A DNA stretch of 64,000 nt from an uncultured Candidatus Saccharibacteria bacterium (GTDB taxonomy: Bacteria; Patescibacteriota; Andersenbacteria; UBA10190), in contig CAZSUC010000001.1 of NCBI GenBank assembly GCA_964610055.1, positions 588,977 through 652,976 on the forward strand, read 5' to 3'. The notes under the pieces were generated by a model. The model had not been told where the DNA came from. It saw only the letters and a program-made list of their open reading frames with translations, and ran no database searches. How positions within the stretch are numbered: the first letter of the stretch is position 1; every line of letters starts with the position of its first letter. Shown here piece by piece: positions 23,504 through 44,324 of this stretch. Made by a program: the position numbers and the translations under genes.

Positions 23504-23568
23504 TATCTCACGTATTTATAGCATACCGCATTGCCAGGCTCCCCCTCCAGCGATTACCCTTATACTTA

Positions 23569-28313: not shown

Positions 28314-29662
28314 TAAATTCTATATTCTGCTTCGCTTAAATCTTCTTCGCCTACTATCTTAATCGCGCTATTTCCATGGCTTAAATACAAAAGCCGATCA
28401 TAAATATGCACATTTTCCGTACCGATCGCACCCAGCCCCGACACACATTGAATTAAAGGTTGTACATCAACTAAATCAGCCGCACTATTTGTCCTATTTC
28501 CTAATGAAAAATCATTTAAACTCCCTCCTGTTTTCAGGAATGGCCATATCACTAAACCTAAAAACACCACCGCTCCCGCACCACTGACAGTTATTGTTCC
28601 TAATTGAATCCAACGCACACTATATCTCTTTAAAAACTTTCCGTACCCAATGCCGGACAATACCCATATTCCCAAACTTACTAAAACAAAATAACGCAAT
28701 GTAAACCGATCAATCATATACAGTAAAGCGCTTAAATGTATCACTAACCCAATCAGCCACGCCCCAGCCTGCACTCGTTTTCGCGGCAATACAATAGCTA
28801 AAATTACTCCCACACATAATAATCCTAAAATAGTTATTTGCACTCCGCCCGGAAATTCCTGCCCCGTATAACGCGCTATAAACGATGACCCGCTCACAGC
28901 CACGCGCAAAATACCGGGTAAATCATGCCAACGCTGACCCATTAAATCGGCCACAGCCGTCGGATCACCTTGGTCATCCGTAAACAACTGCAACATAATC
29001 ATCTGTGTCCCAAAGGCAGCCCAAAAACCCACCGCTGCCGGCCACCATTCCCACCATGTCCGTAAAATTCGCCGAATCATATGTTTATTACCTTTTCTCT
29101 GTACTGCCTCAACCGTTTCTTTGATTAACCACACTAGTGCAATCGCTAATACCGTCGGCGCAAATAAAATATGCGTATGCATCCCTAAACCAGCCACCAC
29201 CCCCGCTAACAAATGCTTATAACGCCATTTCTTTTCTAACACCCACAATAACAAAAATGACCAGAAGGGAATTAAAGTAATCCCCCAACCAATTCGTTGA
29301 TAAGTTAAATAAATAGGCGAAAATCCCATCATCACTGCTCCTATTAAACCAACTGATCGCCCGAATGTTTTTTCCAACACAGCAATCGCCAATAAATAGG
29401 TTATTATCGACACTATCAGCATCGGCACCCGTAACGCCAAGGCTGTATATCCAAACACTTTAATAAAAGGCACACGCACGTAATCCATTAAAGGCCCAAT
29501 ATATGACCTTTCTCCTTTGAAGACCAACTCTTCTGCTTGAGTCAGCTCCCATGCATTTTCTCCCTCCGACCCCTCATCTCCCATTAACCCCGGCACACTT
29601 CCCAGCCAGGCCATATTAATCACTATAAACAGTCCTAATAAACCTAATTTCACTTTATCCAT
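28232..29662 (-). CDS. GT-C glycosyltransferase, ArnT/PMT (GT39/GT83)-like
   Basis: N-terminal TM followed by a DE-containing first loop (LMGDEGSEGENAW) and about 11 TM helices typical of polyprenyl-P-sugar dependent transferases. Confidence 0.6.
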   Translation of the reverse strand: MDKVKLGLLGLFIVINMAWLGSVPGLMGDEGSEGENAWELTQAEELVFKGERSYIGPLMDYVRVPFIKVFGYTALALRVPMLIVSIITYLLAIAVLEKTFGRSVGLIGAVMMGFSPIYLTYQRIGWGITLIPFWSFLLLWVLEKKWRYKHLLAGVVAGLGMHTHILFAPTVLAIALVWLIKETVEAVQRKGNKHMIRRILRTWWEWWPAAVGFWAAFGTQMIMLQLFTDDQGDPTAVADLMGQRWHDLPGILRVAVSGSSFIARYTGQEFPGGVQITILGLLCVGVILAIVLPRKRVQAGAWLIGLVIHLSALLYMIDRFTLRYFVLVSLGIWVLSGIGYGKFLKRYSVRWIQLGTITVSGAGAVVFLGLVIWPFLKTGGSLNDFSLGNRTNSAADLVDVQPLIQCVSGLGAIGTENVHIYDRLLYLSHGNSAIKIVGEEDLSEAEYRIYYRDGKTESLSGIEACPELKYFVVEKI

Positions 29663-29664
29663 AG

Positions 29665-31620
29665 CTAAAGTTGGTATGCAATATCACCTGACTTAGCGAC
29701 CGGCTCTGTCTCTCCTTTGCGTTGCAAAAACATATTACCGGGACGTAGATCTTCATCAATGTACCGGACAGTTACTGCGTTTCCGGCTGTCCCGTCAGGA
29801 CTGGTAATAGCCACGTAAAATTCATGTCCCGCCGCTTCTGTAATCGGATCAAACTCAAAGCGCTTCCATTCGTTGTCTATAATTTCACTGGCATTCACTG
29901 TCACTCGTCGCAACGCGGTTGCCGAATCTGGCCGCTCCTTAATTTCCAACACGACTTCCGCTGTATTATTTCGACTCGAAAAAGTCGCAAACCCAATTTC
30001 GACCGCATTCCAATTATCCTGCTCGGGCTGCACAGTTTGCCCCACTTCCATTCCGCTCGTTAACTCGCCTACATGCTTCGTGAAATATCCAACTGTCATT
30101 GTCTCGTAAATCCAGGCATAAGGCACACCATGTATTGAAACAGTATGTACTGGCGTCTTGTCTTTCACTTCATCTAAAACGTTACTCGCTTGATCATCCA
30201 GAGCTCTTCCCCCCATATTACGATAAGTAATAATGTAACCTACTCGATAATCGTCTCTCGCACTTAAGCTAAATACTTTTCCCTGAAAATACGGCCGCAT
30301 CACGTTCGGATACCAAGAAGCAACTGTTAATTTGTCTCCCAACGGATTTTCATTCAACCAATCAGCCGCTAAATCTAACCCTTCCCCCCACCCCTGCTGA
30401 CTCAAAGAACGCACATTAGGAAATATCGGATTATTATACGCAATCGCATACGGCGCCCACCGCCACCATGTCACTCCCGCTAATATAACTACCAACCCAA
30501 TCAGAATTAATTTATCTCGCTTCTTACTGTGCCACCACGTCATCCCTTGCGCTAACATCCAACCTGATAGAATAGGCCCTATAACCAATGCCGGCATTGC
30601 GTAACGATCCCCTTTCTTAGCCGCCAACGAAATCAATACTAGAAAACCAACAGCATACACAATCATCCAAACCATTGTCTGCGCTCCTTTATCTCGTCGT
30701 TTAACCGCCGCATATAACACATAAACCACAGCCGCTATACTCAAAATTTGTACCCACGGAGTTACTCTCCCTAAAACTGTTCGCACATAAAACGAGGCTG
30801 GCGAAATAGGCTCATCTGATATTTCTAACGCCACATGCTCATCCTCTAAAACCGTCTGCGTATCTTTAGCAATATATCCTAATTGAAAATCCTTCCGAGT
30901 TAACATTGTCGGCCATAAAATTACCAAGACCACCACCGCTATTACGCCCCACATTGCCATTTCACCTAAAACTCGCTTCCAATTCTTCCCTCGCTCCCAA
31001 TACAAATCAATCATCCACATTAAACCAGCAACTGGCCCCAACCAAAATGCTAATACCATTTTTACTCCTAACGCCGCCCCCGCAAAAACTGCGCTAGTAA
31101 TCAAATAACCAGTCTTACGCCGTCGTCGAAACTGAATAAACCACAACAAAGACGTTAACATCAGCATCGCTTGTAACATATCCAAATGCGCCACCATACT
31201 CATCCCTACTACATACGGCTCCAACGCCAACATTATTCCTGCCAACCACGCCATCTCTTTTCCCCAGATCTGACTTAATAGATACGCCACTAATCCAATC
31301 AGACCTGACACAACTATCGCAACTGGCACAGTCGCTGCTTTTCTAAAGCCAATCACATTATTGTCATCTAATTCCACTCCGCTTATTTTTTCTTTTACCA
31401 CAATTCCCGCTCCCATGATCCACATTCCCGTTGCACCCGGATGACTCGTTAAGAATGTCCCGCTAATATCACCAGCGGCTAACTTAGCGTAAAACTCATT
31501 ACTTCGCATCATCCAGTTTTCTTCATCGGCCGTCATAAACGATCCAATCCCAACCAATCGCACACTTATCGCTAGCATCCCGATTACAATCCCAATTATA
31601 ATGTCTTTTACTTTTATCAT
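29665..31620 (-). CDS. GT-C glycosyltransferase, PMT_2/GT39-like, with a C-terminal extracytoplasmic beta-domain
   Basis: MTADEENWMMRS...TSHPGATGMWIMG first-loop motif. Paralogous to 40168-41676 at both ends (LTVASWYP...ITYRNMGGR). The C-terminal domain RFEFDPI..AITSP..GNAVTV recurs in 41673-44324. Confidence 0.65.
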   Translation of the reverse strand: MIKVKDIIIGIVIGMLAISVRLVGIGSFMTADEENWMMRSNEFYAKLAAGDISGTFLTSHPGATGMWIMGAGIVVKEKISGVELDDNNVIGFRKAATVPVAIVVSGLIGLVAYLLSQIWGKEMAWLAGIMLALEPYVVGMSMVAHLDMLQAMLMLTSLLWFIQFRRRRKTGYLITSAVFAGAALGVKMVLAFWLGPVAGLMWMIDLYWERGKNWKRVLGEMAMWGVIAVVVLVILWPTMLTRKDFQLGYIAKDTQTVLEDEHVALEISDEPISPASFYVRTVLGRVTPWVQILSIAAVVYVLYAAVKRRDKGAQTMVWMIVYAVGFLVLISLAAKKGDRYAMPALVIGPILSGWMLAQGMTWWHSKKRDKLILIGLVVILAGVTWWRWAPYAIAYNNPIFPNVRSLSQQGWGEGLDLAADWLNENPLGDKLTVASWYPNVMRPYFQGKVFSLSARDDYRVGYIITYRNMGGRALDDQASNVLDEVKDKTPVHTVSIHGVPYAWIYETMTVGYFTKHVGELTSGMEVGQTVQPEQDNWNAVEIGFATFSSRNNTAEVVLEIKERPDSATALRRVTVNASEIIDNEWKRFEFDPITEAAGHEFYVAITSPDGTAGNAVTVRYIDEDLRPGNMFLQRKGETEPVAKSGDIAYQL

Positions 31621-31659
31621 GCATTACTTATAGTACAATAATTCTAATTAATAAACCGA

Positions 31660-33930
31660 ATGTCGCCTTTTTCTCGTCCTTACTTTGCCTTATTAATTGT
31701 TAGCGCTTTAGCGCTCTGGCCGCTTTTTTTCGGCCGTTTTTACGGTATTGGCGATACACGCTCCGTTTATATTCCCATCGAGCATTTTTTTGCTGAGCAA
31801 CAACGGCACTTTAATTTACCGGCCTGGATGCCAGACACTGCTTGGGGTTTTCCGGTAATTGCTTCTGCTCAAATCGGTTTCTTTTATCCGCCTCTTTTAC
31901 TGACACGCTTCTTACCTATCTTTATTTACCTGCCGTTATTACTCTGGCTCCACATCTTTTTTCTCGGTATCGGCGCCTATCGTTTGGCCCGAACCCTAAA
32001 TATTAGTCAAAACGGCGCCCTGATTACCGCCCTATCCATTGCTCTTAACGCCTTTCTTTGGCAGCACTTAACCCACCTAAACATTATTTTTGCTTTGGCT
32101 TGGTTTCCTTGGCAATTACTCGCCGCTCATTACTTAGCCAGATCACATCGACCTAATTTCAAACAATTTGCCGGCTTAGTTTTCACTTTAGGCCTCCCGT
32201 TTTTAGCTGGCCAACTTCAAGTTCCTTTTCTCACCGCTCTTTTCTCTACCATTTATTATTTCGTTTCTTTACCCAAAAAGCCTTTCCCCTCTCGACATCT
32301 CCTCATTTTCCTCGGCGCAACTCTTTTGACTATTACTCTCACCGCCGTCCAAACATTTCCCACCCTAGAGCTCACATTCCTTTCCAGCCGTGGATCAACT
32401 AATGAATTTTCTTTGGAACGAGCTAATCAACATAGTTTTCCTATTTATCATCTACCCACCTTACTTTTTCCACGCTTTTTCGGCTCAGATAATACTTATT
32501 GGGGGAAACGTATTGAAATAGAATACGGCTTTTTCTTCGGCGTCATTCCGCTATGCCTCAGCTTTATTGCTATATTCAACAAATCACGTCGTTACCGTTT
32601 CTGGATTATCAGCGGCTTCATAGCTTTTCTGTTAAGCCTGGGCGAATTTTCTCCTTTTCGCTTAGTTGGCTTAGAGCCATCGCTCTGGTACTTTTCTGCT
32701 CCCGCCCGTTGGCTATTCTTCACCGTTTTTTCTGGATCAATCCTTGCTGGTTTTGGTTATGATCTTTTGCCTAATATCTCACCTCGTTACCTGCGCATCC
32801 TTAAATCAACTATTGTAACCATATTAAGCTGCGTCATTTTATATAATCTCGTCCTTTGGCTCTTGCCGGAAAATTTTGCTTCTTATGTTCTAACCTGGTT
32901 GCAATCACAAAATCTCACCGGCGCTCGCGATTCAGCCTATTATTTAGATAAGATTAATTCCTTACTCTCCTCTGCAAAACACACGGGCTTATCACTTGCT
33001 TCGCCATATACTTACATCACTCTCATTCCTTTGCTCGCCATTCCATGGCTCTTCCAAAAACATCACTCGTGGCTTATTCCTCTCACAGCTATTGAACTCA
33101 TCTTAATTGCCAGTACGGCCAATCCAAGTGTTACTTGGTCCAATATTCTAACTCCTCCTGCCAGCATCTCTGCCCTTCCTCAAAGTGTTACCAGCGATCA
33201 CGCTCGCATCATTTCAATCTCAGCTCCCGGCGATACAGGGCTTTGGCTAACTAACCCTGAAACCCGTGCCGATACCGCTCGTCGCGAACAATATCGTCAA
33301 CAACTCGAACCACTCACTCACTCACTTTTTAATCTTGCCGGTTCTCAATGGCCCGCCTCGCTGGATCTACAATCTCAGGCACATACTTTAGAAAATTTAC
33401 TCGAATCACGCCAAGATCAACTATACATTGATTCTGACAAAGCCGCTGCTCTCAATATCGGTGCTGCCTTAATTGCCAACGAAGCTCCCCACACTGTTTC
33501 AGAAGTACTACCCCAAAATATTGCACCGAATATCTTCTTGTATTCCTTCTCTCCTCAACCTCGCGCTTCTCTTTTAACTGAAGACCAAACCGAATTAGCG
33601 CTTCCATACGACAACACTAATCCTAATCACCAAACTTATACCCTCTCATCATCTACTCCCGCGACCCTTATTATTCGCGACACCTGGTACCCTGGTTGGC
33701 AAGCCACACTTGACGACCAACCCGTTAACATTGATACCTATAACAATATTTTCCGTTCTGTTTCGGTTCCCTCCGGATCACATACCGTTTCTTTCACCTA
33801 TCATCCTACTTGGCTTTATTACGGTCTAGCTATTTCGCTTACCACTCTTGGTTTTCTAATATTTGTGCTGATGTACAATAATCATATCTACACTGTTCCC
33901 TTTATTTTAAGGAGGAAGACCATTGGCTGA
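31660..33930 (+). CDS. YfhO-family membrane protein
   Basis: 756 aa. The N-terminal region is paralogous to 23569-26346 (GIGDTRSVYIPIEHFFAEQQ...NLPAWMPDTAWGFPVIA versus LDDLKLFYYPIETIYAEFQ...HLPLWSNVFGFGHPLLA). Confidence 0.7.
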   Translation: MSPFSRPYFALLIVSALALWPLFFGRFYGIGDTRSVYIPIEHFFAEQQRHFNLPAWMPDTAWGFPVIASAQIGFFYPPLLLTRFLPIFIYLPLLLWLHIFFLGIGAYRLARTLNISQNGALITALSIALNAFLWQHLTHLNIIFALAWFPWQLLAAHYLARSHRPNFKQFAGLVFTLGLPFLAGQLQVPFLTALFSTIYYFVSLPKKPFPSRHLLIFLGATLLTITLTAVQTFPTLELTFLSSRGSTNEFSLERANQHSFPIYHLPTLLFPRFFGSDNTYWGKRIEIEYGFFFGVIPLCLSFIAIFNKSRRYRFWIISGFIAFLLSLGEFSPFRLVGLEPSLWYFSAPARWLFFTVFSGSILAGFGYDLLPNISPRYLRILKSTIVTILSCVILYNLVLWLLPENFASYVLTWLQSQNLTGARDSAYYLDKINSLLSSAKHTGLSLASPYTYITLIPLLAIPWLFQKHHSWLIPLTAIELILIASTANPSVTWSNILTPPASISALPQSVTSDHARIISISAPGDTGLWLTNPETRADTARREQYRQQLEPLTHSLFNLAGSQWPASLDLQSQAHTLENLLESRQDQLYIDSDKAAALNIGAALIANEAPHTVSEVLPQNIAPNIFLYSFSPQPRASLLTEDQTELALPYDNTNPNHQTYTLSSSTPATLIIRDTWYPGWQATLDDQPVNIDTYNNIFRSVSVPSGSHTVSFTYHPTWLYYGLAISLTTLGFLIFVLMYNNHIYTVPFILRRKTIG

Positions 33931-34126
33931 TGACAAAGACCAAGACGAACGAAACCGACGACTTACAGAAGCCCTTGCGCCGTTAGGGCGAGGCGAGCTT
34001 CCTGACGGTACACCCATTGACCTAGCCGCCATCTCTGAACGTGCAAATCGGAAAGCCTGGATTTTTGCGCGCCGGCTTAGAGATAGCGCAGTACGTGACA
34101 ACCGCCGATACAAGGGTCAACACTAG
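33923..34126 (+). CDS. Small basic hypothetical protein, TTG start (paralog 1)
   Basis: TTG at 33923 lies 8 nt after AGGAGG. The 67-aa product shares ERNR(R/Q)LT.AL.PL...DL.AI... and a C-terminal YKG with the ORF at 34285. A strong intrinsic terminator follows. Confidence 0.55.
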   Translation: MADDKDQDERNRRLTEALAPLGRGELPDGTPIDLAAISERANRKAWIFARRLRDSAVRDNRRYKGQH

Positions 34127-34141
34127 CCCACCTCCTTACGT

Positions 34142-34169
34142 CCCGTGCCACATCGGCACGGGCTTTTTT
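34142..34169 (+). terminator. Rho-independent terminator after small paralog 1
   Basis: CCCGTGCC-ACATC-GGCACGGG 8-bp GC-rich stem followed by C+TTTTTT. Confidence 0.75.
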
Positions 34170-34284
34170 ACAATTTATTCCGTCCCAGTCTCTCATACCG
34201 GTATAAAATTTCTACTTTTGTAGATCGATATAGTATATTAACTTTATCTTTTGTTCCCTTCACTTTTAGTAGGAGGATAAACCG

Positions 34285-34476
34285 TTGGATAATGAAAACG
34301 AACGAAACCGACAACTTACCGTGGCTCTCAATCCATTAAGGACAGGTCTATCATTATCTGACCTCTCCGCAATCGCTGACCATGCCACAGACGACGCCAT
34401 GTCGCATGCCAAAGCAGTTCGTTCAGGAACAGCAAGGACCAGAGCTAAACACAGGTTAGGCCCATACAAAGGCTGA
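34285..34476 (+). CDS. Small basic hypothetical protein, TTG start (paralog 2)
   Basis: Same SD and TTG context as 33923 (AGGAGGATAAACCGTTGGAT). 63 aa, with protein-level similarity to paralog 1. Confidence 0.55.
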   Translation: MDNENERNRQLTVALNPLRTGLSLSDLSAIADHATDDAMSHAKAVRSGTARTRAKHRLGPYKG

Positions 34477-34509
34477 CCTTTGCGCACCATCACAGTCAGG
34501 AGAATTTTC

Positions 34510-34788
34510 ATGGCAGCAGAAACTTATCATTTCATCCTTTTAGGAAGCCCTCTCTCACGAACAGACTTCCTTAATCCGCTTAAAAGGCGGATACAATTCG
34601 ACATGGGCAAGACAGCTCTCGCTCAAGTCCCAGGCATACGTTTCGGTACCGAATTTCCTATTGCTTGCGCCGTAACCATCACCTGCCCGCGAGAATCACT
34701 GCCAGAACTCCACCGGATCATGACTGAACACAGTTTTCAAGAAGGTAGCCAGGAGATTTCAATCAAAACAGCCAGAGAAATCGCCTAA
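34510..34788 (+). CDS. Hypothetical protein
   Basis: 92-aa ORF from an ATG with an AGGAGA SD 7 nt upstream. Followed by a hairpin plus T-run. Confidence 0.45.
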   Translation: MAAETYHFILLGSPLSRTDFLNPLKRRIQFDMGKTALAQVPGIRFGTEFPIACAVTITCPRESLPELHRIMTEHSFQEGSQEISIKTAREIA

Positions 34789-34814
34789 CACACCTCCTCC
34801 TTCATCATCCTACT

Positions 34815-34841
34815 CCACCAAGCCAGTCTTGGTGGATTTTT
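34815..34841 (+). terminator. Rho-independent terminator between the convergent 34510 (+) and 34840 (-) genes
   Basis: CCACCAAG-CCAGT-CTTGGTGG 8-bp stem followed by ATTTTT. Confidence 0.65.
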
Positions 34842-36135
34842 ATATCCACATCCTATCAATCAATTCTCGCGGTTGTCCGTACCGTAATCGATTTACCGCC
34901 TGCACCTCTACCTTCCCTATAGCCGTTTCTAAACTTAACGGCGGCAAACTCTGCCCCCGAAATGCTCGGTACGTAATTCCGGCCTGAGTCAGACGGATAA
35001 AAAAGTGATATGGCGGCAAGTCCTGAAAATCCTCCACTTGAATCGCCTGCCCCTTATCCCACGATGTTTGCTGAAAGGCCGGCAGTAACGCTTCCGCATC
35101 ATTTGCCCCTATTTGAAAAGCCACCAACGTTCCTACATTACCCAACACCGCCTCTCGCACCTCGTCAGTTAATTGCGCCACATACTGATTAGTTAAATGC
35201 ACAGCTAATCCGTACTTGCGCGCTTCCGACAACATAGAAATGAATGTTTCCGTCATCACATTCTGAAATTCATCGACGTATAAATAAAAGGGAACCCTGT
35301 CTTCGACCGGCATATCGGCACGACGCATTATCGCCGCCTGTAACTTTGCCATCAAAATCAATCCCAACATATATGAATTTAATTCTCCCAGTCTTCCTTT
35401 AGACAAATTCACAATCAAAATTTTGCCATGATTCACAATCTCATCAAACGCCAAAGCATTGCGCTTCTGACCGATGATATTGCGCATCGTCGTATTTGTC
35501 ATAAAGCGACCAAACTTGGAAGTAAAATAATTCAACATTTCCGAGCGATGAAACTGCGCGGTTTTTGCCATCTGCTCTTCCCAAAATGACAATACGACCC
35601 GATCTCGCACATGGCGACGTTTTTCTTGCTCAAATTTTTCATCCGTAAATAAGCGCGGAATCTCAATCAAAGTTCCGCCCGCCGGATCGGCCATAACTGT
35701 TAAAGCCGCATTTCGCATCCAGTGTTCAAACTGCGGCCCAATAATTCCCTGCTGATCCGGATCAAATAGTTTATAAAATATCTGAATCGCCTCGGCCACC
35801 AAAAAATCTTTCTCACTTTCAGTTTTACCATCCAATAAGTTCAAGCCTAATGGCCATTCCGTATCAGCCGGATCAAACAACACTACATCATCCAACCGCT
35901 CCGCCGGAATATTATTTAACAGCCAATCGCACACTTCTCCATGCGGATCAACAAAACAACACCCCGCCCCAGCCTGAATATCCTGCAAAATCATATTTTG
36001 ATACAAAGTCGATTTACCCGTCCCAGTTTTTCCAATGCAATACATATGTCGCATCCGATCTTGCGGTGCTGTTTGAATACTGCGCATTTGATTGCGAAAT
36101 TCAGCGTGTCCAATTACATTCATTCTTTCTGTCAT
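34840..36135 (-). CDS. Soluble VirD4/TraD/TraG-like P-loop ATPase (FtsK-HerA superfamily, type IV coupling-protein-like)
   Basis: Walker A CIGKTGTGKST, downstream FVDPHGE (DPxGE motif) and Walker B FYLYVDEFQNV. No N-terminal TM segment. Terminal gene of a 4-gene minus-strand operon. Confidence 0.65.
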   Translation of the reverse strand: MTERMNVIGHAEFRNQMRSIQTAPQDRMRHMYCIGKTGTGKSTLYQNMILQDIQAGAGCCFVDPHGEVCDWLLNNIPAERLDDVVLFDPADTEWPLGLNLLDGKTESEKDFLVAEAIQIFYKLFDPDQQGIIGPQFEHWMRNAALTVMADPAGGTLIEIPRLFTDEKFEQEKRRHVRDRVVLSFWEEQMAKTAQFHRSEMLNYFTSKFGRFMTNTTMRNIIGQKRNALAFDEIVNHGKILIVNLSKGRLGELNSYMLGLILMAKLQAAIMRRADMPVEDRVPFYLYVDEFQNVMTETFISMLSEARKYGLAVHLTNQYVAQLTDEVREAVLGNVGTLVAFQIGANDAEALLPAFQQTSWDKGQAIQVEDFQDLPPYHFFIRLTQAGITYRAFRGQSLPPLSLETAIGKVEVQAVNRLRYGQPRELIDRMWI

Positions 36136-36136
36136 T

Positions 36137-36361
36137 TCAGCTCCTTTCTACCATTGTAAAATAATTAGCCGGAATAGGACGTGGCGGCAATCCCGGTCGC
36201 ATCACCATAACTACTTTTGTTTCCACCTTAGCTTCAGACGTAATCTTCACTGTCCGCCGCCATGCTTCCAAACGGTTTTTAATTACTCTCTGCGTTTCTA
36301 TTGGCAGCCAATGCTTAATTCGCTCATACTCCTCTTCTACTTTGTGTAATTTTGCTATCAT
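36137..36361 (-). CDS. Small hypothetical protein, translationally coupled
   Basis: Start taken at the ATG in an ATGA overlap with the Clp-like gene stop (MIAKLHKVEEEYERIK...). 74 aa. Its stop is 1 nt before the downstream ATG. Confidence 0.45.
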   Translation of the reverse strand: MIAKLHKVEEEYERIKHWLPIETQRVIKNRLEAWRRTVKITSEAKVETKVVMVMRPGLPPRPIPANYFTMVERS

Positions 36362-38043
36362 ATTGTTTCTTTCATCATCCATTGCCCGATCGCTGATTCC
36401 GCCGTTTGTTCTAGCCATCTTTTCAACGGCCTAACCCCGAACCGCGGATCATATTTCTGCTCAATGTGTTGTCTAATCATATTATCCGACATCGACAAAT
36501 TAACTCCCAAATGACTGAATCGTCTTTCAATCTTCTGTAGTTCCAACCGTCCGATCATCACTAAAGTTTCCGGCGCAAACGGAGCAAAAACAGCAATTCC
36601 CTCAAACCGATTCAAAAACTCCCACCGAAAATATTTAGTCAGCAATGGCAACATCCGCCGACTTAACCATTCCGCACTTGTTACATCCTCTCCTGCCTGC
36701 CAATCAGTCACAATTTCACTTATCCCTATATTCGAAGTCGCCACAATCACGGTTTTCCGGAAATCGATTGTTCGTCCTTGCCCATCAGTTAAACGCCCAT
36801 CTTCTAACACTTGTAAAAAAATATCAAACACCGCTTTATCGGCTTTTTCAATTTCATCCAATAAAACTAACGAATATGGCCTTTGTTGTACTGGATTAGT
36901 TAATTGACCACCACTCTCATACCCAACATAACCAGGTGGCGCACCAATTAAACGCTGTACATTATGTGCTTCCTGGTATTCCGACATATCAACCCTTACC
37001 ATCGCCTTATCTCCGCCGTACAATTCTCGCGCCAACACACGCGCCACCTCTGTTTTACCGACTCCGGATGGACCTAAAAACAAAAATGAACCCAATGGTC
37101 GATCCGGATTCTTCAATCCTAACCATGACCTTTCGATTACTTTTGTTACCATATTTACTGCTTGATCCTGACCAATGACCTGCGCTGCTAATCTACCCCC
37201 CAACCCAGCAATGGCCTTCCTATCTCGCGTTTGAACTTTTATTGTCGACATCCCCAACTTATCACTCAAAACCCGCTGCGCATCTTCATATGCCACAATC
37301 CTCCGCCCCTGCACCACCGCCTCCGCTCCAATGTCATCTAAAAACCTAATTGCCCGTTCGGGCATCGCTAAGCTCGCTGGTAACTGACTCGCTAAATCAT
37401 AGATTGCTTCCGGCATATTAGCAGCCATCTTAATATTATGTTTGAATCCAAAATAAGCGGCGCGATCTCTTAAAATTTCCACCACATCTGCTTTTCCTAA
37501 TTCATCTAATCGAATCCATTCGAACTCACGTACATACTTCGGATAATTTTCCTTAAATTTTATTTCTCCTTCTAACGACAACGCTAACACTAATCTATGC
37601 CTCTGTTTCTGCCAAAACTTACTCCACACATCCGCCATCTGCGCTGTATTCATCACATACTCCAACAGCACCTCTGCCTTATCAATCACCAAAATACAGG
37701 CTGGTAGCGCTCCTAGTGCTTCTCCGTAAAGCCGTAATTTCGCGGCCGGATCATGCGCTCGATTCATTTTTTCCTGCCACCATTTCAAATCTAACTCCAG
37801 AATTGGTGTTTGAATTATCCCCTGCAAACTGCCTTTGACCGCCGCCTGCGCCAACCCTCTCAACAACGCTGTTTTGCCTACTCCTTCTCCTCCTGTCACC
37901 ACCACGTTATTCATTTGATCACGCTCAAATACTCGCGCCATCAAACTCAACTCTCGCTCCCGACCTCTCACTGGCCACTGACGAACTTGAGTAGCCTCTC
38001 GCACTAAATCAATTATATGTATTGTTTCTAATCGCTCAGGCAT
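36358..38043 (-). CDS. Clp/Hsp100-family double AAA+ ATPase (ClpB/ClpA-like, lacking N- and M-domains)
   Basis: D1 Walker A VVVTGGEGVGKTAL with a degenerate D1 Walker B (ILVIDKAE). D2 Walker A FLFLGPSGVGKTEVAR, Walker B LVLLDEIEKA, and sensor FLQVLEDGRLTDGQGRTIDFRKTVIVATSNIG, all characteristic of ClpB D2. Confidence 0.75.
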   Translation of the reverse strand: MPERLETIHIIDLVREATQVRQWPVRGRERELSLMARVFERDQMNNVVVTGGEGVGKTALLRGLAQAAVKGSLQGIIQTPILELDLKWWQEKMNRAHDPAAKLRLYGEALGALPACILVIDKAEVLLEYVMNTAQMADVWSKFWQKQRHRLVLALSLEGEIKFKENYPKYVREFEWIRLDELGKADVVEILRDRAAYFGFKHNIKMAANMPEAIYDLASQLPASLAMPERAIRFLDDIGAEAVVQGRRIVAYEDAQRVLSDKLGMSTIKVQTRDRKAIAGLGGRLAAQVIGQDQAVNMVTKVIERSWLGLKNPDRPLGSFLFLGPSGVGKTEVARVLARELYGGDKAMVRVDMSEYQEAHNVQRLIGAPPGYVGYESGGQLTNPVQQRPYSLVLLDEIEKADKAVFDIFLQVLEDGRLTDGQGRTIDFRKTVIVATSNIGISEIVTDWQAGEDVTSAEWLSRRMLPLLTKYFRWEFLNRFEGIAVFAPFAPETLVMIGRLELQKIERRFSHLGVNLSMSDNMIRQHIEQKYDPRFGVRPLKRWLEQTAESAIGQWMMKETI

Positions 38044-38044
38044 A

Positions 38045-39895
38045 TTAGACCATCATTGTCCGATTAACAGTTGTGCCACCCGTAATCTGACTGGATCTTA
38101 TCGTTCCTTCCTCTTCATCTTCTGTTCCTATAATTATCCCGCCACGATGACGCGCTTCTGCCGCTAACTCAATCTCTGTCCCTCTTTGCTTAATCTGACC
38201 AACATAATTATCTAAATCTACTCGCCAACCCGGCTTCTCTCTTTCATTTCTCCAATTTTCTCTTTCCGCCTCTGCTCTCCATTCATATCCAACCGGACCA
38301 TCTGTCACTTGCTCTAAACTATCCGGCTTCGTTTTCGCCTCATAAAAACGATACCTAACTGCATCCCCATCTCGCTCCACTACCGTTACATCCAACACTT
38401 CGCCTTTTACCGTACGCTCTCCCGAAAAATACTGCTGTTCTCTGTTTACTGCGCCTCTAATCACTTTTTCTAGCTCTCCTCGCTCTTCCACCGGCCACAA
38501 ATCCATCACACTCTTTTCTATTTGCTCCGGCATCAACGTTAAAGCGACTTTCTCTTCCATATCTAACTCAACATCAATACCCTGAATTTCCTCTCTTCTT
38601 ACCTCCGCCTTATAAACCGTTTCTACCTTCGGGTACTCTTTCTTTTCCCCAACCTTCACATCTACATTCACATCTACATCTATATTCTCTACATTATTTT
38701 CTCTTCCCTTTTCTAAAATCACTGGTCTTTCAGCTATTTTTTTCTCCTCCGTAATCGCAACTTCAACTCTTTCCTTAACTCTCGTAACGCTTTGCTCCGA
38801 TAAAACCTGGTCGGCTTTCACATCCACCGCTTTCGGCACTAGTCCCGGAAACATCTCCTGTAAACTCACTTCTACTTTCCTAGATTCATTTTTCTGTCCT
38901 AAATCAGTTTGCACTACTTCTGGCATTGAAGCAGCTTCTCTTTCCCCCGCATTTACATACTTTATCTCTATGGCTTCACTCGGCGTATTTTCTATCACCC
39001 GTACCTCTCCTGTCTTCGTCTCACCAGGTTCCTCTTGCTTTAACAACTCCTTACGCAACTCCTCATGATTCCAAACTTCTTCTAGCTGCGGCTCTTCAAC
39101 CTGCCTCTGCTCCACAAACACATCAGAATTAATCGTATTTTCAGATGCTTGTTCTTCTAGTTCTTCTCTTTGATCATCTACTTCCACTCTTTCACCAACC
39201 ATATCCATCGCATTTATATAATTTATCTCAATGCCTTCACTCGACGTATTTTCTATCACTTGCACCTCTTCTTCTCTCACCTCATTGCTTTGCTGTTCTT
39301 GTACCACTACCACTTCTTCTCTAACAAGCTCTTCACTTATCTCATCAACCATACTTTCTGCTTGCGCTTCAATCTCTACTTGTTCTACTTGCGCTTCATC
39401 TTCACTGCCTATCCACTCGTCGCTTTCTTCATTCAAATTAACCGGTACTTCACGAAATTGCACTAACATATATTCTGTTTCTCGTTCTCCCCACTCATTC
39501 ACTTCGTCTTTGACCACCACTGCACAACTTTTAAACTCATGATAAGCCACATATCCACTTTTCGCGCCACATAATGTTTCAAATTGCCCTTCTTCATCCA
39601 TTCCTTCACTACTAATCTCCTGATCATTCCAAAATACCCGTCTCTTACCAGTCGCGTCTTCCCTCACCACGCATTTATATGTCTGCGCCATTTCTAGTCT
39701 TTGCCCTGTCCCTTGCTCTAAATCAACTCGAGCTGATTCTAATCTCATTGTCATTCGCTCATGTTCTTCTGTCTGGCGTTCCTTTTCCGATGCTAATTCT
39801 TCTGCTTGAACCTGTACCTCAGATTCAATCTCTTCAACATCCAACATTTCCTCTAGGCTTTCTTCGGTTTCCGCTATGTTTATACTTTCAGGCAT
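38045..39895 (-). CDS. Highly acidic glutamate-rich protein with an internal sequence repeat (no recognisable domain)
   Basis: 616 aa from the ATG at 39895, which lies 9 nt after AGGAG. Low-complexity E/V/Q-rich sequence with duplicated segment QVIENTSSEGIEINYINA / RVIENTPSEAIEIKYVNA. Less acidic C-terminal 150 aa. The ORF-track start at 39925 would include the SD. Confidence 0.6.
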   Translation of the reverse strand: MPESINIAETEESLEEMLDVEEIESEVQVQAEELASEKERQTEEHERMTMRLESARVDLEQGTGQRLEMAQTYKCVVREDATGKRRVFWNDQEISSEGMDEEGQFETLCGAKSGYVAYHEFKSCAVVVKDEVNEWGERETEYMLVQFREVPVNLNEESDEWIGSEDEAQVEQVEIEAQAESMVDEISEELVREEVVVVQEQQSNEVREEEVQVIENTSSEGIEINYINAMDMVGERVEVDDQREELEEQASENTINSDVFVEQRQVEEPQLEEVWNHEELRKELLKQEEPGETKTGEVRVIENTPSEAIEIKYVNAGEREAASMPEVVQTDLGQKNESRKVEVSLQEMFPGLVPKAVDVKADQVLSEQSVTRVKERVEVAITEEKKIAERPVILEKGRENNVENIDVDVNVDVKVGEKKEYPKVETVYKAEVRREEIQGIDVELDMEEKVALTLMPEQIEKSVMDLWPVEERGELEKVIRGAVNREQQYFSGERTVKGEVLDVTVVERDGDAVRYRFYEAKTKPDSLEQVTDGPVGYEWRAEAERENWRNEREKPGWRVDLDNYVGQIKQRGTEIELAAEARHRGGIIIGTEDEEEGTIRSSQITGGTTVNRTMMV

Positions 39896-40167
39896 ACAAA
39901 AAACTCCTACATGCACAACACGCATGAGGAGAAATCACTAAAAATCCTTATGCGCGTAGGCTCAACAAAGGATTCAGGCACTCTGACTTATGGCTTTTAG
40001 CCCATCACAGTTGCGGCATACCAGCGCCGGATTCTCACCGGCTTTCCCTGATCACACTTTTCAGTGCGCGTGGTGCGAACCACGCCAATCCTCTTTAAAA
40101 ATTAATGTGCACTCTTAGCTTACCGCCGTTCCCTTGGCCCCACAATCAGTTTTTTGCACAGGCTCGT

Positions 40168-41676
40168 TTATTTAGCGTATATCCAAACATAAGGCACGTC
40201 GTGCACCTTTATAACCTCCACCGGCACGACATCTTTCATTGCCGCTAACGCCTGACTCGCCAAAGTGTCTTCTCCGCGACCACCCATGTTTCTATAGGTC
40301 ACAATATAATCAACATGTTCATTCTCCCGAGCCGCTAAACTAACTACCTCGCCCCTAAAATATGTTTGCAACACTTGCGGATACCAAGATGCAACCGTTA
40401 ATTGTTCCGCCTCTGTCTGCGCGTTTAACCAAGCTGCCGCCGCTTCTAACCCCTCACCCCATCCTTGCTGACTTAGTGGCCGTATCTCCGGTAATAAAGA
40501 ATTATTATACGCAATCAAATAACTATCTCGCCAATTAGCCCATGTCCAAACGGATAGAAATACCACCACGCCTATCGCAAACCCTTGCCATGTTTTTTTT
40601 CGTCTCGCCAAAGTTATCTTTGCCGTTACCCATCCCGTCAACACCGGCCCCACAACCAACGCTGGCAATGCATACCGATCCGCTTTTTTCGCCGCCCAAG
40701 TCATAATAACCAAAAAGCCAATCGCATAAACATACATCCAAACCATTTCTTGGCTGTGCTTTTGTTTCCGCACTATTACTATTAATGCTGCTACCCAGCC
40801 AAATAACACCAGCGGCGTACTCCGACCCAATGCGGTTCGCATATAAAAAGTCGCGGGCTGAATCGCATCCGTCCCAGCATCTAACTCAACATGCTCCCAA
40901 GTAACTGCTGTCCCAATATCACGCGTAAATGAACGACTCATATCTGCTTTCACCCACGCCGCTGGCCATGCCACCCAAAACACCAGTCCTGCTACTCCAA
41001 TCACCGTGCCCAAAGTTCGCAACATTATATTTATTTTTCCTGACTTGCCCCATAACTTCCACACCACCCACCCCATCATCATTGGCACTAGCCATAACGC
41101 TAAAATTAATTTCGTTGCCGCTGCTAGCCCAAACCAAATACCTGCTCCAACTAGCCAACGCCATTTTTGCTTTTGCCACCAGACCATCCACGCCAACCAA
41201 CTATTCAACATGAACAATGCCAATAATCCATCCAAATGCACAATCTGCGTCGCTCCTGCTAAATACGGATCTAACGCCAAAAATATTCCAGCTAACCAAC
41301 CGACTGGCGCCCCTCCTAAGATCGTCAACATAAATGCCGCTATCCCAATCATCCCAGCCGCCGCTAAACTCACGGGCAGAACAGCTGCCTTACGAAAATG
41401 TTGTAAATTACCTGGCTGAACTGTTACTCCTAAACGTGTTTCTTGCACCACTTCCCCTGCCCCTGCTAGCCACATTAAAGGCGCCCCCGGATGAGTTGTC
41501 ACAAATGTCGACGCTGGATCCATGGCTCGAATTGCCTGCCAATATTGAGCGCTGCGTAACATCCACGCCTCTTCATCCACTGTCATATATTGCCCTAACC
41601 CCGGCCACCGCGCCAATAACGCTAAAACTCCGATACTAACTGGTATTATTCCTGCTTTCGCTTTAATCCAATTCAC
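40168..41676 (-). CDS. GT-C glycosyltransferase, PMT_2/GT39-like (paralog of 29665-31620)
   Basis: MTVDEEAWMLRS...TTHPGAPLMWLAG and C-terminal LTVASWYPQVLQTYFRGEVVSLAARE...VTYRNMGGRGED align to the 29665 ORF. Confidence 0.65.
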   Translation of the reverse strand: MNWIKAKAGIIPVSIGVLALLARWPGLGQYMTVDEEAWMLRSAQYWQAIRAMDPASTFVTTHPGAPLMWLAGAGEVVQETRLGVTVQPGNLQHFRKAAVLPVSLAAAGMIGIAAFMLTILGGAPVGWLAGIFLALDPYLAGATQIVHLDGLLALFMLNSWLAWMVWWQKQKWRWLVGAGIWFGLAAATKLILALWLVPMMMGWVVWKLWGKSGKINIMLRTLGTVIGVAGLVFWVAWPAAWVKADMSRSFTRDIGTAVTWEHVELDAGTDAIQPATFYMRTALGRSTPLVLFGWVAALIVIVRKQKHSQEMVWMYVYAIGFLVIMTWAAKKADRYALPALVVGPVLTGWVTAKITLARRKKTWQGFAIGVVVFLSVWTWANWRDSYLIAYNNSLLPEIRPLSQQGWGEGLEAAAAWLNAQTEAEQLTVASWYPQVLQTYFRGEVVSLAARENEHVDYIVTYRNMGGRGEDTLASQALAAMKDVVPVEVIKVHDVPYVWIYAK

Positions 41677-44324
41677 ACTGCACTCGCTTTAATTCGATGC
41701 ATGAACACCAGCGTGTTTGATCCATTCTCTACTTCATGAACTGTTTCAAAATCAGTTTCCATCCCTGCCTCAATCTCGGAATACTCCATCAAAAATGAAA
41801 ACCCAGTTTGTTTTTCTAGTAACACCCATTCCGCCTCACGCCAAGCCTGAACCATCTCTTCGGCGGAAGGCAAAAACACATTCAGTCTTTCTGGGTTCTT
41901 TCGTGTAAATTCATAGGCATACCAACGCGGATGAGCAATATCTAACGACACATGATGACCAGATAAATATGGTACTGCCGCTGCTCCCGTAAAAATCGGT
42001 TTATCTGATGGAATATTTTCCTGCGCCCATTCTGCCGCCTCACGCAAAGAATCTTGCTGAAAAGTTCCAGTGTGCTCAAACGTTGCCGTAATATAATTTG
42101 ATAAATAAACTGCCCACATAATCACTAGTATACTTATCACCGCCAATGGGCGGCGTACCATTTCTCCTTTACCTACCACAAACAAACGTCTCCACAACCA
42201 ATAAGCTCCTACCGCCGCCAATATCGTCAGAGGTGGCAAAAATTCAATAATGTAATTCGCATGAAACTTAATCCAATTCCAGTAAAAGAAGGCTAAGCCT
42301 AAAAACCACGCCAACAAGACCAATGCACTCGCTAGCATCTGTCCCGCCGATTGTTCTCCCGGTGCCACTTTAATTGACTGTTTAATTTCAAATTGAGCTT
42401 GTGCTCCTGAAACTACATTCATCGGTATATTCACCCCTGCATCCGGCTGCGTACTAGCTTTAACTTGAGATGACGCCACCCATCCTTCTTCATTACTACG
42501 CGGCCATACAGTTGCAATCAGTAAAACACTCATCATACCCCACCATAACCCTCGCATTCCACCCATTGATAAAAACGGTTCTCCTTCATATTCAAAGAAA
42601 AATCCATGCGCCCACCACCACCCTAACCATGCCAATAACCAGCCTATTTTTGGCAGCACATGATCGACAATTACAATAGTGATCTTGTCCGACTTATCAC
42701 TGACCCACTTTCGCGCTATCACCCGTAACCATCTTTCCCACATCATTCCAACTCCCACCAGCGCCAAAATTATTAGCGGCAATGATTCTCGGAAAAACGG
42801 CGTCATGCCTCGAATTGAATATTCGCGCACTTGTTCCGCCTCTGCCGGATCAATTGCGGTTTGCCCATCTTCCGCTGAATTAAAACCACTCACTTCCCAC
42901 AAGCCTTGTGTACCATACTGACCATATGCCCACCCTAACAACGCCGAAATTACTAACAAAAATCCCGCCCCAATCAAAACTAAACGCTGGAATTTATTGC
43001 GCCATCCTCGCGACTCAATCCAGACTAATAATAACGGCACAATCCCTAACGCTAGAATACTCTTACGCGAAGCAACACCTAACCCCAATAAAAGACCACC
43101 TATTAACAAGCGATATCCTAATTTCCGGCCTCCCAGATGACCCCGCAACGCCGTCCATATCACCGCGATTCCACTAATCCCAAATAACATCGCCACTGGC
43201 TGAGTGTGCACATACACTGTACTCACTGCTGCCGATCCCAACATCCCCCACATTACCGCTGCCAATAATCCTGTTCGTTTGTTATGTGCTTCTCGTCCAA
43301 TAAAATACATCGGAATGATTGTCAGCACTCCAGCCATAATTGATCCCATGCGTCCCGCTAAAATTGTCGGTCCCATTATTAACTGCCATAATGCCACCCA
43401 TAACAACATAATCGGCGCCTTCACATAACCATCCCCTCCGGCTAAGTGTCCGCGCAATAATGTTTGCGCATCATACAAATAATTACCCTCATCATTAGTC
43501 ACCGGCATTTCTACGGCATATCTGATACGCCATAAAGTCGCCAATATCATGACTAAAGCAATAATCGTTCCCACTACTACTCGATTTAATTCTTTTTCCT
43601 GAGCTTGCCCGCTCAAAACTACTATTGCTCCTACAACCACCGCAGCCGCCAACGCTAAAATCATCCAGTTATAATACGTTCCTTCCCGTGTATCCCAAGT
43701 TCCCACTACCCACCGCGCCTGATTCCCAACAGTGGTAATAATAGCTTCTCGCAACGTCACATCATGATGAGCTATAAACGCCACATCCACCGTTGGCTTT
43801 CCTGACCGCGCAATTACCTCCGCCCCTATCTGCCCTTCGCTGTTCCGCACTAAAAATGCTGACCCTAAGTGATAAGGATCTTGCGTGTTCAAATCAACAG
43901 TCACTGCATTTCCCACCACTGACGCCGGCGAAGTAATCGCGAAGAAATAAGTTTTTCCTTTGCTATTCGCAATCGGATCAAACTCAAACCGATAAAATTG
44001 ATTATCTCCTAGCTCCTGCGGCTCAGCTATGACAGTCCGCAAATTTTCATCACTTGTATAGGACTCTCGTAAATAGAAATAAACCGGCGCCGTGTTGTCC
44101 CTCCCCGAATACGTTGCAAACATTACGCTTACTGCCGACAAGTCATCTGCATCCGCCACAAAAGTCTGTCCTACTAACGCATCGCCCGTTAATTCACCTG
44201 CGTTAGTTGTATATTCCTTAATTTCCGTGTCATTTTGCTTAACCTTAATAAAATTCGCTGACACTGCTGCAGCCGCTAAAACAACTACCACAATTAAAAA
44301 CCAAATTTTTGTTGATGATCGCAT
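41673..44324 (-). CDS. Large GT-C (ArnT/PMT-like) membrane glycosyltransferase with an N-terminal extracytoplasmic beta-domain
   Basis: Signal-anchor, then a domain RFEFDPIANSKGKTYFFAITSPASVVGNAVTV homologous to the C-terminus of 29665-31620. Then about 13 TM helices with a PMT/ArnT-like first loop (NDEGNYLYDAQ) and a long C-terminal region. 883 aa. Confidence 0.6.
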   Translation of the reverse strand: MRSSTKIWFLIVVVVLAAAAVSANFIKVKQNDTEIKEYTTNAGELTGDALVGQTFVADADDLSAVSVMFATYSGRDNTAPVYFYLRESYTSDENLRTVIAEPQELGDNQFYRFEFDPIANSKGKTYFFAITSPASVVGNAVTVDLNTQDPYHLGSAFLVRNSEGQIGAEVIARSGKPTVDVAFIAHHDVTLREAIITTVGNQARWVVGTWDTREGTYYNWMILALAAAVVVGAIVVLSGQAQEKELNRVVVGTIIALVMILATLWRIRYAVEMPVTNDEGNYLYDAQTLLRGHLAGGDGYVKAPIMLLWVALWQLIMGPTILAGRMGSIMAGVLTIIPMYFIGREAHNKRTGLLAAVMWGMLGSAAVSTVYVHTQPVAMLFGISGIAVIWTALRGHLGGRKLGYRLLIGGLLLGLGVASRKSILALGIVPLLLVWIESRGWRNKFQRLVLIGAGFLLVISALLGWAYGQYGTQGLWEVSGFNSAEDGQTAIDPAEAEQVREYSIRGMTPFFRESLPLIILALVGVGMMWERWLRVIARKWVSDKSDKITIVIVDHVLPKIGWLLAWLGWWWAHGFFFEYEGEPFLSMGGMRGLWWGMMSVLLIATVWPRSNEEGWVASSQVKASTQPDAGVNIPMNVVSGAQAQFEIKQSIKVAPGEQSAGQMLASALVLLAWFLGLAFFYWNWIKFHANYIIEFLPPLTILAAVGAYWLWRRLFVVGKGEMVRRPLAVISILVIMWAVYLSNYITATFEHTGTFQQDSLREAAEWAQENIPSDKPIFTGAAAVPYLSGHHVSLDIAHPRWYAYEFTRKNPERLNVFLPSAEEMVQAWREAEWVLLEKQTGFSFLMEYSEIEAGMETDFETVHEVENGSNTLVFMHRIKASAV

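Follow-up and report, generated by a model that had tools for sequence, protein, structure and literature searches.

An operon with a candidate cobalamin riboswitch encodes a polyanionic protein beside Clp-like and type IV coupling protein-like ATPases

The N domain is the usual docking site of Hsp100/Clp ATPases, and specialised members of this family act with particular clients or adaptors, as in the pairings of ClpV with VipA/VipB, ClpC with MecA, and Mpa with Pup. Type IV coupling proteins (T4CPs), including TrwB, TraD and VirD4, are a second group of motor ATPases, and the substrates of type IV secretion systems (T4SSs) must be unfolded. The cobalamin (B12) regulon usually covers transport, synthesis and B12-independent isozymes. 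In Patescibacteria, 5,713 VirD4-like genes include only 148 near virB4, and exaptation is possible (PMC12102498). Here we analyze a 64-kb stretch of DNA from an uncultured bacterium (contig CAZSUC010000001.1, positions 588,977 to 652,976; hereafter the window) in which a minus-strand gene at 38045..39895 encodes a 616-aa polyanionic protein, referred to below as the acidic protein. This gene is followed by genes for a Clp/Hsp100-like double AAA+ ATPase, a small protein and a TraD/VirD4 (T4CP)/HerA-like P-loop ATPase. With roughly even confidence, we propose from the sequence that the acidic protein is a dedicated client or substrate-like adaptor of the Clp-like/T4CP-like motor pair, encoded in an operon that is probably cobalamin-gated. 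The combination of known motor families with a new partner family is an uncharacterised and very rare module, and our literature search found no description of a module uniting a Clp ATPase, a T4CP and an acidic protein.

The acidic protein, its operon and related loci

The four genes are translationally coupled in the window, as their junctions consist of 1-nt gaps or an ATGA overlap: TAA-T-ATG between the acidic and Clp-like genes, TGA overlapping ATG between the Clp-like gene and the small open reading frame (ORF), and TGA-A-ATG between the small ORF and the T4CP-like gene. An earlier annotation of this DNA (the original prediction) had placed the stop of the acidic gene 1 nt before the Clp-like start, as we find. 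The Clp-like protein (36358..38043, minus strand, 561 aa) matches AAA_2 (PF07724) at 7e-58 and ClpB_D2-small (PF10431) at 1.6e-9, and it has the two AAA+ modules, with an AAA_2-type second module (D2) followed by ClpB_D2-small, that characterise class I Hsp100/Clp proteins. The ClpA model aligns over residues 9-552, beginning at ClpA residue 171-187, and the protein has the length of ClpA minus its N domain, with neither a Clp_N domain nor an M-domain insertion. Its first module (D1) keeps Walker A, while Walker B reads IDK without a catalytic Glu and the KYR pore loop is missing; D2 is canonical, with LLDEIE and GAPPGYVGY. Inspection of the sequence found no [LIV]G[FL] at the position of the IGF/IGL ClpP-docking loop, and the protein fits neither the ClpB subtype (no M domain) nor the ClpA/C/X subtypes (no IGF/IGL loop). 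The last gene of the operon (34840..36135, minus strand, 431 aa) starts 1 nt after the small ORF stop and encodes a protein that matches TrwB_AAD_bind (PF10412) and TraG-D_C (PF12696) above their cut-offs. It also matches TIGR03743 at 2.7e-13, although its scores fall far short of the curated cut-off of every NCBIfam T4CP model, and gives a weak TrwB match in the PDB (E 0.007).

Two further loci carry an acidic protein directly followed by a short Clp-like gene, in agreement with the co-occurrence that the original prediction had proposed as a check. The first, on a 2.9-kb Logan contig (L082), encodes the acidic protein P0004 (739 aa, net charge -48), and a Clp-like D1 starts 15 nt after it. 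This D1 is 33% identical to that of the window and scores 102 bits against it, versus at most 57 bits for generic Clp D1 domains. The second (L083), from a landfill metagenome (PMC9723747), was the only further locus found by a metagenome scan with the D1 alignment. It contains a 5'-truncated acidic ORF (>503 aa, net charge -45) and a Clp-like gene whose 553-aa product aligns in full to the window protein (38% identity, 403 bits). A 93-aa ORF comes next, and the contig reaches 44 residues into a T4CP-like gene with 48% identity. The 93-aa ORF has no detectable similarity to the small protein of the window and is a positional counterpart only. Gene order is kept in both related loci as far as the contigs reach. 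A degenerate D1, with IDK, IDG or IDD in place of DE and no KYR or pore-loop Tyr, is found in all three Clp-like proteins, and D2 is canonical in the two whose contigs include it, those of the window and L083. The three acidic proteins are all net acidic, with a pI of 4.4-4.6. The window protein and P0004 share an N-terminal domain, an acidic low-complexity chain with a repeat of 71-87-aa period, and a short Clp-like gene directly downstream; L083 shares the same features except the N-terminal domain, which lies off the contig. Because each relative is a singleton on a single short contig, the family of acidic partners is extremely rare in public data. A word-indexed search with the Clp D1 profile returned only two generic Clp fragments in unrelated contexts. 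A scan of genome contigs with the whole Clp-like protein found only generic ClpB/ClpC proteins of 800-900 aa, including some from Patescibacteria, none with an acidic neighbour, and these were set aside.

As a separate observation, gp156 of Bacillus phage G (L087, 86999-98123) is, at 26% identity, the relative nearest to the T4CP-like ATPase among phages, and it directly follows the VirB-like gp155. The arrangement suggests a T4SS-type ATPase pair in this jumbo phage. With no Clp-like or acidic neighbour beside gp156, phage G was rejected as a related module.

The part of the acidic protein with a detectable homologue is its N-terminal region, which the original prediction had passed over. When 1.84 billion representative proteins were searched exhaustively with phmmer, P0004 was the sole credible homologue (E 8e-6, query residues 33-169 only); a second match, to a tetratricopeptide repeat protein, covered a single 33-residue stretch and is probably noise. 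By BLASTP the acidic protein and P0004 are 38% identical over 112 aa, which defines a conserved region at residues 36-147 (39455..39790, minus strand) comprising the end of a long acidic helix and a beta-rich domain. A two-sequence AlphaFold model of residues 1-169 (mean predicted local distance difference test score, pLDDT, of 71) has a long acidic helix at residues 7-63 and strands within 66-150, and the conserved N-terminal module is probably folded. The full-length single-sequence model was uninformative (pLDDT 38). Beyond the N-terminal region lies an acidic low-complexity middle region (residues 151-455, 38531..39445, minus strand; net charge -50) of low model confidence, followed by a C-terminal region (residues 456-616, 38048..38530, minus strand; net charge -10) that is less acidic and richer in aromatic residues (6.8% versus 2.6%). 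The original prediction had taken the C-terminus for a globular domain. This was not upheld, as the model there is of low confidence, no homologue was found, and the last 160 residues have no counterpart in the two positional homologues. Searches for homologues thus succeeded for the N-terminus and failed for the C-terminus: a word-indexed search of 5.8 billion proteins with the full acidic protein returned only the query itself, and the same search with the C-terminal 172 aa alone gave no match. Even at E<=10, Pfam, NCBIfam, PADLOC and PHROGs gave no match to the acidic protein, to its N-terminal or C-terminal part, or to the small proteins, and a PDB sequence search with the acidic protein found no match. 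The acidic protein is best described as fast-evolving, largely low-complexity and lineage-restricted. The extreme C-termini also differ among the three proteins: those of P0004 and L083 end in basic, Pro-rich tails (...QRAAQAA on L082 and ...PLPIALAA on L083), reminiscent of the ssrA-type LAA C-terminal degron, and the window protein ends in ...NRTMMV.

The middle region of the window protein contains an internal duplication. Residues 197-229 align without gaps to residues 284-316 with a score of 87, whereas 30 shuffles averaged 48 and never exceeded 59, and at the DNA level the two copies are 84% identical over 69 nt. Copy 1 (39204..39272, minus strand) encodes ...EEEVQVIENTSSEGIEINYINA... 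and copy 2 (38943..39011, minus strand) encodes ...TGEVRVIENTPSEAIEIKYVNA..., the two being offset in frame by 261 nt, or 87 codons. The consensus of the duplicated 23-residue motif is EVxVIENTxSExIEIxYxNA, and 13 codons in its core of 20 are identical between the copies. As the approximately 64 residues between the copies are unrelated, the duplication is a dispersed copy of a motif of about 23 residues. The duplicated blocks of the original prediction thus exist, while the internal tandem duplication it had described is not a full one. Because the spacing of the copies is in frame, recombination between them would add or remove one 87-residue module. Likewise, the recurring EEVxxxEEL motif that it had reported occurs only once in strict form, while the relaxed form EE[VLIM]x(2-3)EE[VLIM] occurs three times versus 0.14 expected. 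Internal repeats have periods of 87 residues in the window protein, 75 in P0004 and 71 in L083, and are significant in the first two. Alternating hydrophobic/polar beta-like pentads were considered as a family trait and rejected, being enriched only in the window protein.

The acidic ORF is a real gene, as the original prediction held. The mechanically defined ORF spans 38045..39925 on the minus strand and gives 616 aa from ATG 39895. Its polyanionic character was likewise confirmed, the protein having a pI of 4.36 and a net charge of -83 that make it a clear charge outlier among the 50 window ORFs compared. The dominance of E, V, Q and I claimed for it holds for E (20.5%) and V (12.3%), with Q (5.7%) and I (4.9%) falling short. 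With the other window genes as the training set, codon-usage log-odds come to +0.26 in frame versus -0.53 and -0.58 out of frame and are positive in frame in all three thirds of the gene, as in neighbouring genes. This argues that the ORF is not a shadow of the purine-skewed strand, and the poor coding potential that the original prediction had named as a possible objection was not found. Nor is the repeat an artefact of assembly, the other objection it had raised, since window 30716-40772 (10,057 bp) recurs at 100% identity in an independent Logan assembly (run SRR8925805). A spurious origin is essentially excluded.

A candidate cobalamin riboswitch in the leader

The original prediction had also passed over the 5' leader, where a candidate cobalamin riboswitch aptamer (RF00174; 39957..40105, minus strand) lies between an upstream stop at 40168 and ATG 39895, on the strand of the gene itself. 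The match has an E-value of 3e-5 in a 401-nt search and 0.0048 in the whole window, where it is the only Rfam match with E<1; no family reached its gathering score in the Rfam scan of the 64 kb. The alignment is full-length and shows the core GGGAA..GCCGGUGAGAAUCCGGC and a B12-box-like element, AAGUCAGAGUGCCUG. This is a short form without the peripheral P6 extension, 59 model positions being replaced by 5 nt.

Based on the sequence together with minimum free energy and constrained folds, we predict an expression platform at 39904..39974 (minus strand) that comprises a P1 strand, a P1-mimic, and an anti-Shine-Dalgarno (anti-SD) and a Shine-Dalgarno (SD) element. The 3' P1 strand, AAUCCUUU (39967-39974), is able to pair with the P1-mimic AAGGAUU (39943-39949), a copy of the 5' P1 strand that lies, together with the U run that follows it, within 39940-39949. 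A predicted hairpin joins the anti-SD CUCCU (39927-39931) to the SD AGGAG (39904-39908). In the constrained folds, leaving the 3' P1 strand free sequestered the SD, while forming P1 largely released it, and it is tempting to speculate from the direction of this predicted change that the leader is an ON switch. The same hairpin bears on the choice of start codon. No SD precedes the alternative in-frame ATG at 39925, which falls within the anti-SD hairpin, and ATG 39895 is therefore the likely start; its AGGAG was correctly noted in the original prediction, with a spacer of 8 nt instead of the 9 nt given there.

The leader thus resembles RF00174 riboswitches in its full-length match, core, B12-box-like element, 5' leader position, correct orientation and SD-sequestering hairpin. 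It differs from them in a score below the gathering score, in the missing extension, and in downstream genes unlike those of the usual B12 regulon. On the strength of the aligned sequence, we consider it a candidate that is probably a cobalamin riboswitch. Its association with a Clp/T4CP operon is unexpected, and a literature search on cobalamin riboswitches in Patescibacteria found nothing relevant. If true, a cobalamin riboswitch before such an operon would take the B12 regulon past transport, synthesis and the switching of isozymes.

A proposed client of two motors and the alternatives

A dedicated client or adaptor role is suggested by the apparent loss of the N domain and of D1 activity from the Clp-like motor, whose neighbour combines a docking-type domain with a long flexible polyanionic chain. 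In the mechanism we propose, the N-terminal alpha/beta domain of the acidic protein (approximately residues 36-147) would anchor it to the ATPases encoded downstream. Docking would take place on the Clp-like motor because this protein does not itself have an N domain for binding substrates. Its active D2 ring would next thread the long polyanionic chain, on which the T4CP-like ring may also act. Cobalamin would gate expression of all four genes through the riboswitch and the SD-sequestering hairpin. We infer the physical interaction, the threading, the direction of regulation and the cellular role of the acidic protein. A chaperone or adaptor substrate had been among the suggestions of the original prediction, and this part of it fits both the translational coupling and the recurrence of the gene pair in the two related loci, with the interaction itself being a prediction.

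Compared to the described Hsp100/Clp clients and adaptors, the locus is similar in that a specialised AAA+ motor stands beside what is probably a particular partner, and in that this partner combines a docking element with a long flexible chain. It is dissimilar in that the ATPase lacks both the N and the M domain and its D1 is degenerate; VipB, MecA and Pup have no similarity to the acidic protein. A further comparison, and no more than a lead, is the magnetosome protein MamJ, which is likewise acidic and Glu/Val-rich with a repeat period of about 87-88 residues, but which belongs to a different organism and context; a sequence relation is not expected.

Several points weigh against a client or adaptor role. 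An adjacent, coupled gene need not encode a substrate, and binding to the ATPases or activity with them is a prediction. The model of the N-terminal domain gave no informative fold match, and beyond this domain no significant sequence is common to the three acidic proteins. The internal repeat of L083 is marginal (51 versus a shuffle maximum of 49), and a resemblance between the window motif VIENTxSExIEIxY and VIIxExPSxxxRVIExxV of P0004 was rejected because 25 of 300 shuffles were as good; a match of the same motif to L083 was also rejected as not significant versus shuffles. Co-occurrence rests on three loci in all (n=3), two of them on contigs of at most 3 kb. In the leader, the full-length RF00174 match falls short of the gathering score (27.4 versus 31.5 bits), and both related contigs end too near the acidic gene to include the corresponding region.

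If true, the dedicated client role would make this operon a compact, self-contained case of an Hsp100-type unfoldase, a T4CP-type ATPase and a dedicated polyanionic client. It bears on how T4SS-type ATPases obtain unfolded substrates, and the four genes are small and soluble, so that the hypotheses can be tested directly in vitro. It also bears on the role of the VirD4-like genes that are found in their thousands far from virB4 in Patescibacteria (PMC12102498), with the module being a candidate context for one class of these orphan genes.

An alternative that the original prediction had raised and that we consider unlikely is that the acidic protein is an exported cargo, which the Clp-like motor unfolds and the T4CP-like ATPase passes to a T4SS channel encoded elsewhere, for delivery outside the cell or into a host bacterium. 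The presence of a T4CP-type ATPase within the same coupled operon is consistent with export, as are the general need of T4SS substrates for unfolding and the net basic character of the last 100 residues of P0004 (+4) and L083 (+7), which recalls many T4SS signals. The VirD4-like genes of open role that lie away from virB4 in Patescibacteria also favour it (PMC12102498). However, the C-terminus of the window protein is net acidic, with a charge of -3 in the last 30 residues compared to +3 in both P0004 and L083. The comparison with T4CPs is similarly divided. The last gene of the operon encodes a P-loop nucleotide-binding domain and TraG-D_C/TrwB_AAD regions as in TrwB, TraD and VirD4, and its 431 aa are close to the 436-437 aa of the soluble TrwB fragment. 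In contrast to those proteins, it scores far below the NCBIfam cut-offs and has no N-terminal membrane anchor, its maximum 19-residue hydropathy being 1.35, and no membrane-compatible hydrophobic segment was found in any of the four operon proteins. Linkage to a transport apparatus was not found either, as the 64-kb window contains no T4SS channel genes, no VirB4/VirB6-type genes and no relaxase. A more elaborate version, in which a ClpB-type unfoldase with a dead D1 and an anchor-less T4CP work in series to thread a DNA-like polyanion on a B12 cue, for example for T4SS export into a host cell by an ultrasmall, possibly Patescibacteria-type, bacterium, strikes us as improbable. If true, it would give a function to one class of orphan T4CP genes and an unfoldase to T4SS substrates.

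It is quite improbable that the acidic protein is a DNA mimic of the kind that the original prediction had suggested, or a polyanionic regulator, whose chain titrates or regulates DNA-binding proteins such as restriction enzymes or the adjacent T4CP/FtsK-like translocase. Its net charge of -83 and Glu content of 20% resemble the strong negative charge of the mimics Ocr and ArdA, and the neighbouring ATPase belongs to a DNA-translocase-related superfamily. But Ocr and ArdA are small and rigid, being compact folded dimers of 110-170 aa, whereas the acidic protein is a 616-aa low-complexity chain of low model confidence with no match to an ArdA/Ocr-type or other family in Pfam, NCBIfam, PADLOC or PHROGs, no PDB sequence match and no informative fold match for its N-terminal model. 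Its positional homologues carry far less charge, at -45 to -48 over 500-740 aa.

We give a similarly low likelihood to the possibility that the cassette is an anti-phage or mobile-element module with the acidic protein as sensor or decoy. Its distribution is very patchy, the Clp D2 region matches the PADLOC candidates PDC-M37B and DolB, and the T4CP-like protein matches the PADLOC models mad8 and HerA as well as phrog_5156 and Bacillus phage proteins. However, these PADLOC and PHROG matches span generic ATPase domains only, no nuclease or other effector domain was found, and neither the D1 profile nor the T4CP-like protein had a match in scans of viral contigs. The codon usage is that of the neighbouring genes, and a defence system would be an unusual place for a B12 riboswitch. 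The operon is flanked by envelope glycosylation genes (PMT_2, YfhO, GT2/GT4 and sugar-nucleotide enzymes) together with LepA, MurJ and DUF4012, with no integrase or tRNA nearby.

Very improbable is a role as a cation-binding or storage polyanion, for example for cobalt, or as an acidic repetitive scaffold tied to the B12/cobalt economy: the riboswitch-like leader and the repetitive, Glu-rich protein would fit, but a metal-binding motif is lacking, the operon encodes neither a transporter nor a corrinoid enzyme, and two motor ATPases would be left unexplained. Finally, a spurious or decaying ORF on a purine-rich coding strand, which the extreme strand skew of the region (GC skew -0.49) and the near lack of homologues might suggest, is scarcely credible given the in-frame codon bias in all three segments, the SD, the coupling to the next gene, and the conservation of both N-terminal domain and synteny.

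The remaining operon features and the surrounding region

The small protein gene (36137..36361, minus strand) encodes 74 aa from an ATG that overlaps the Clp-like stop. Read from its first ATG at 36418, the small ORF is 93 aa long and shares 61 nt (36358-36418) with the end of the Clp-like gene; because the internal ATG overlaps the Clp-like stop as ATGA, the real product is probably the 74-aa form. Directly after the stop of the T4CP-like gene is a GC-rich palindromic hairpin (34814..34836), which probably marks where the operon ends.

The stretches 22103-33930 and 40168-44324 are unusually rich in large polytopic membrane proteins of the PMT/PMT_2/YfhO/ALG3 glycosyltransferase type. Two further proteins of 925 aa and 656 aa, encoded on the plus strand (23569-28313), each contain about 11 hydrophobic segments and match no Pfam family. 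ARAGORN identified no tRNA or tmRNA gene in the whole 64 kb. In its gene content, the DNA resembles small-genome bacteria. The window shows a very strong, uniform strand asymmetry: between 1 and 62 kb, the GC skew of almost every 2-kb bin is approximately -0.3 (-0.21 to -0.49), and it eases to -0.14 in the last bin. As the skew persists across plus-strand genes (23.5-28.3 kb and 31.7-33.9 kb), the strand asymmetry of the window looks to be linked to replication rather than to transcription.

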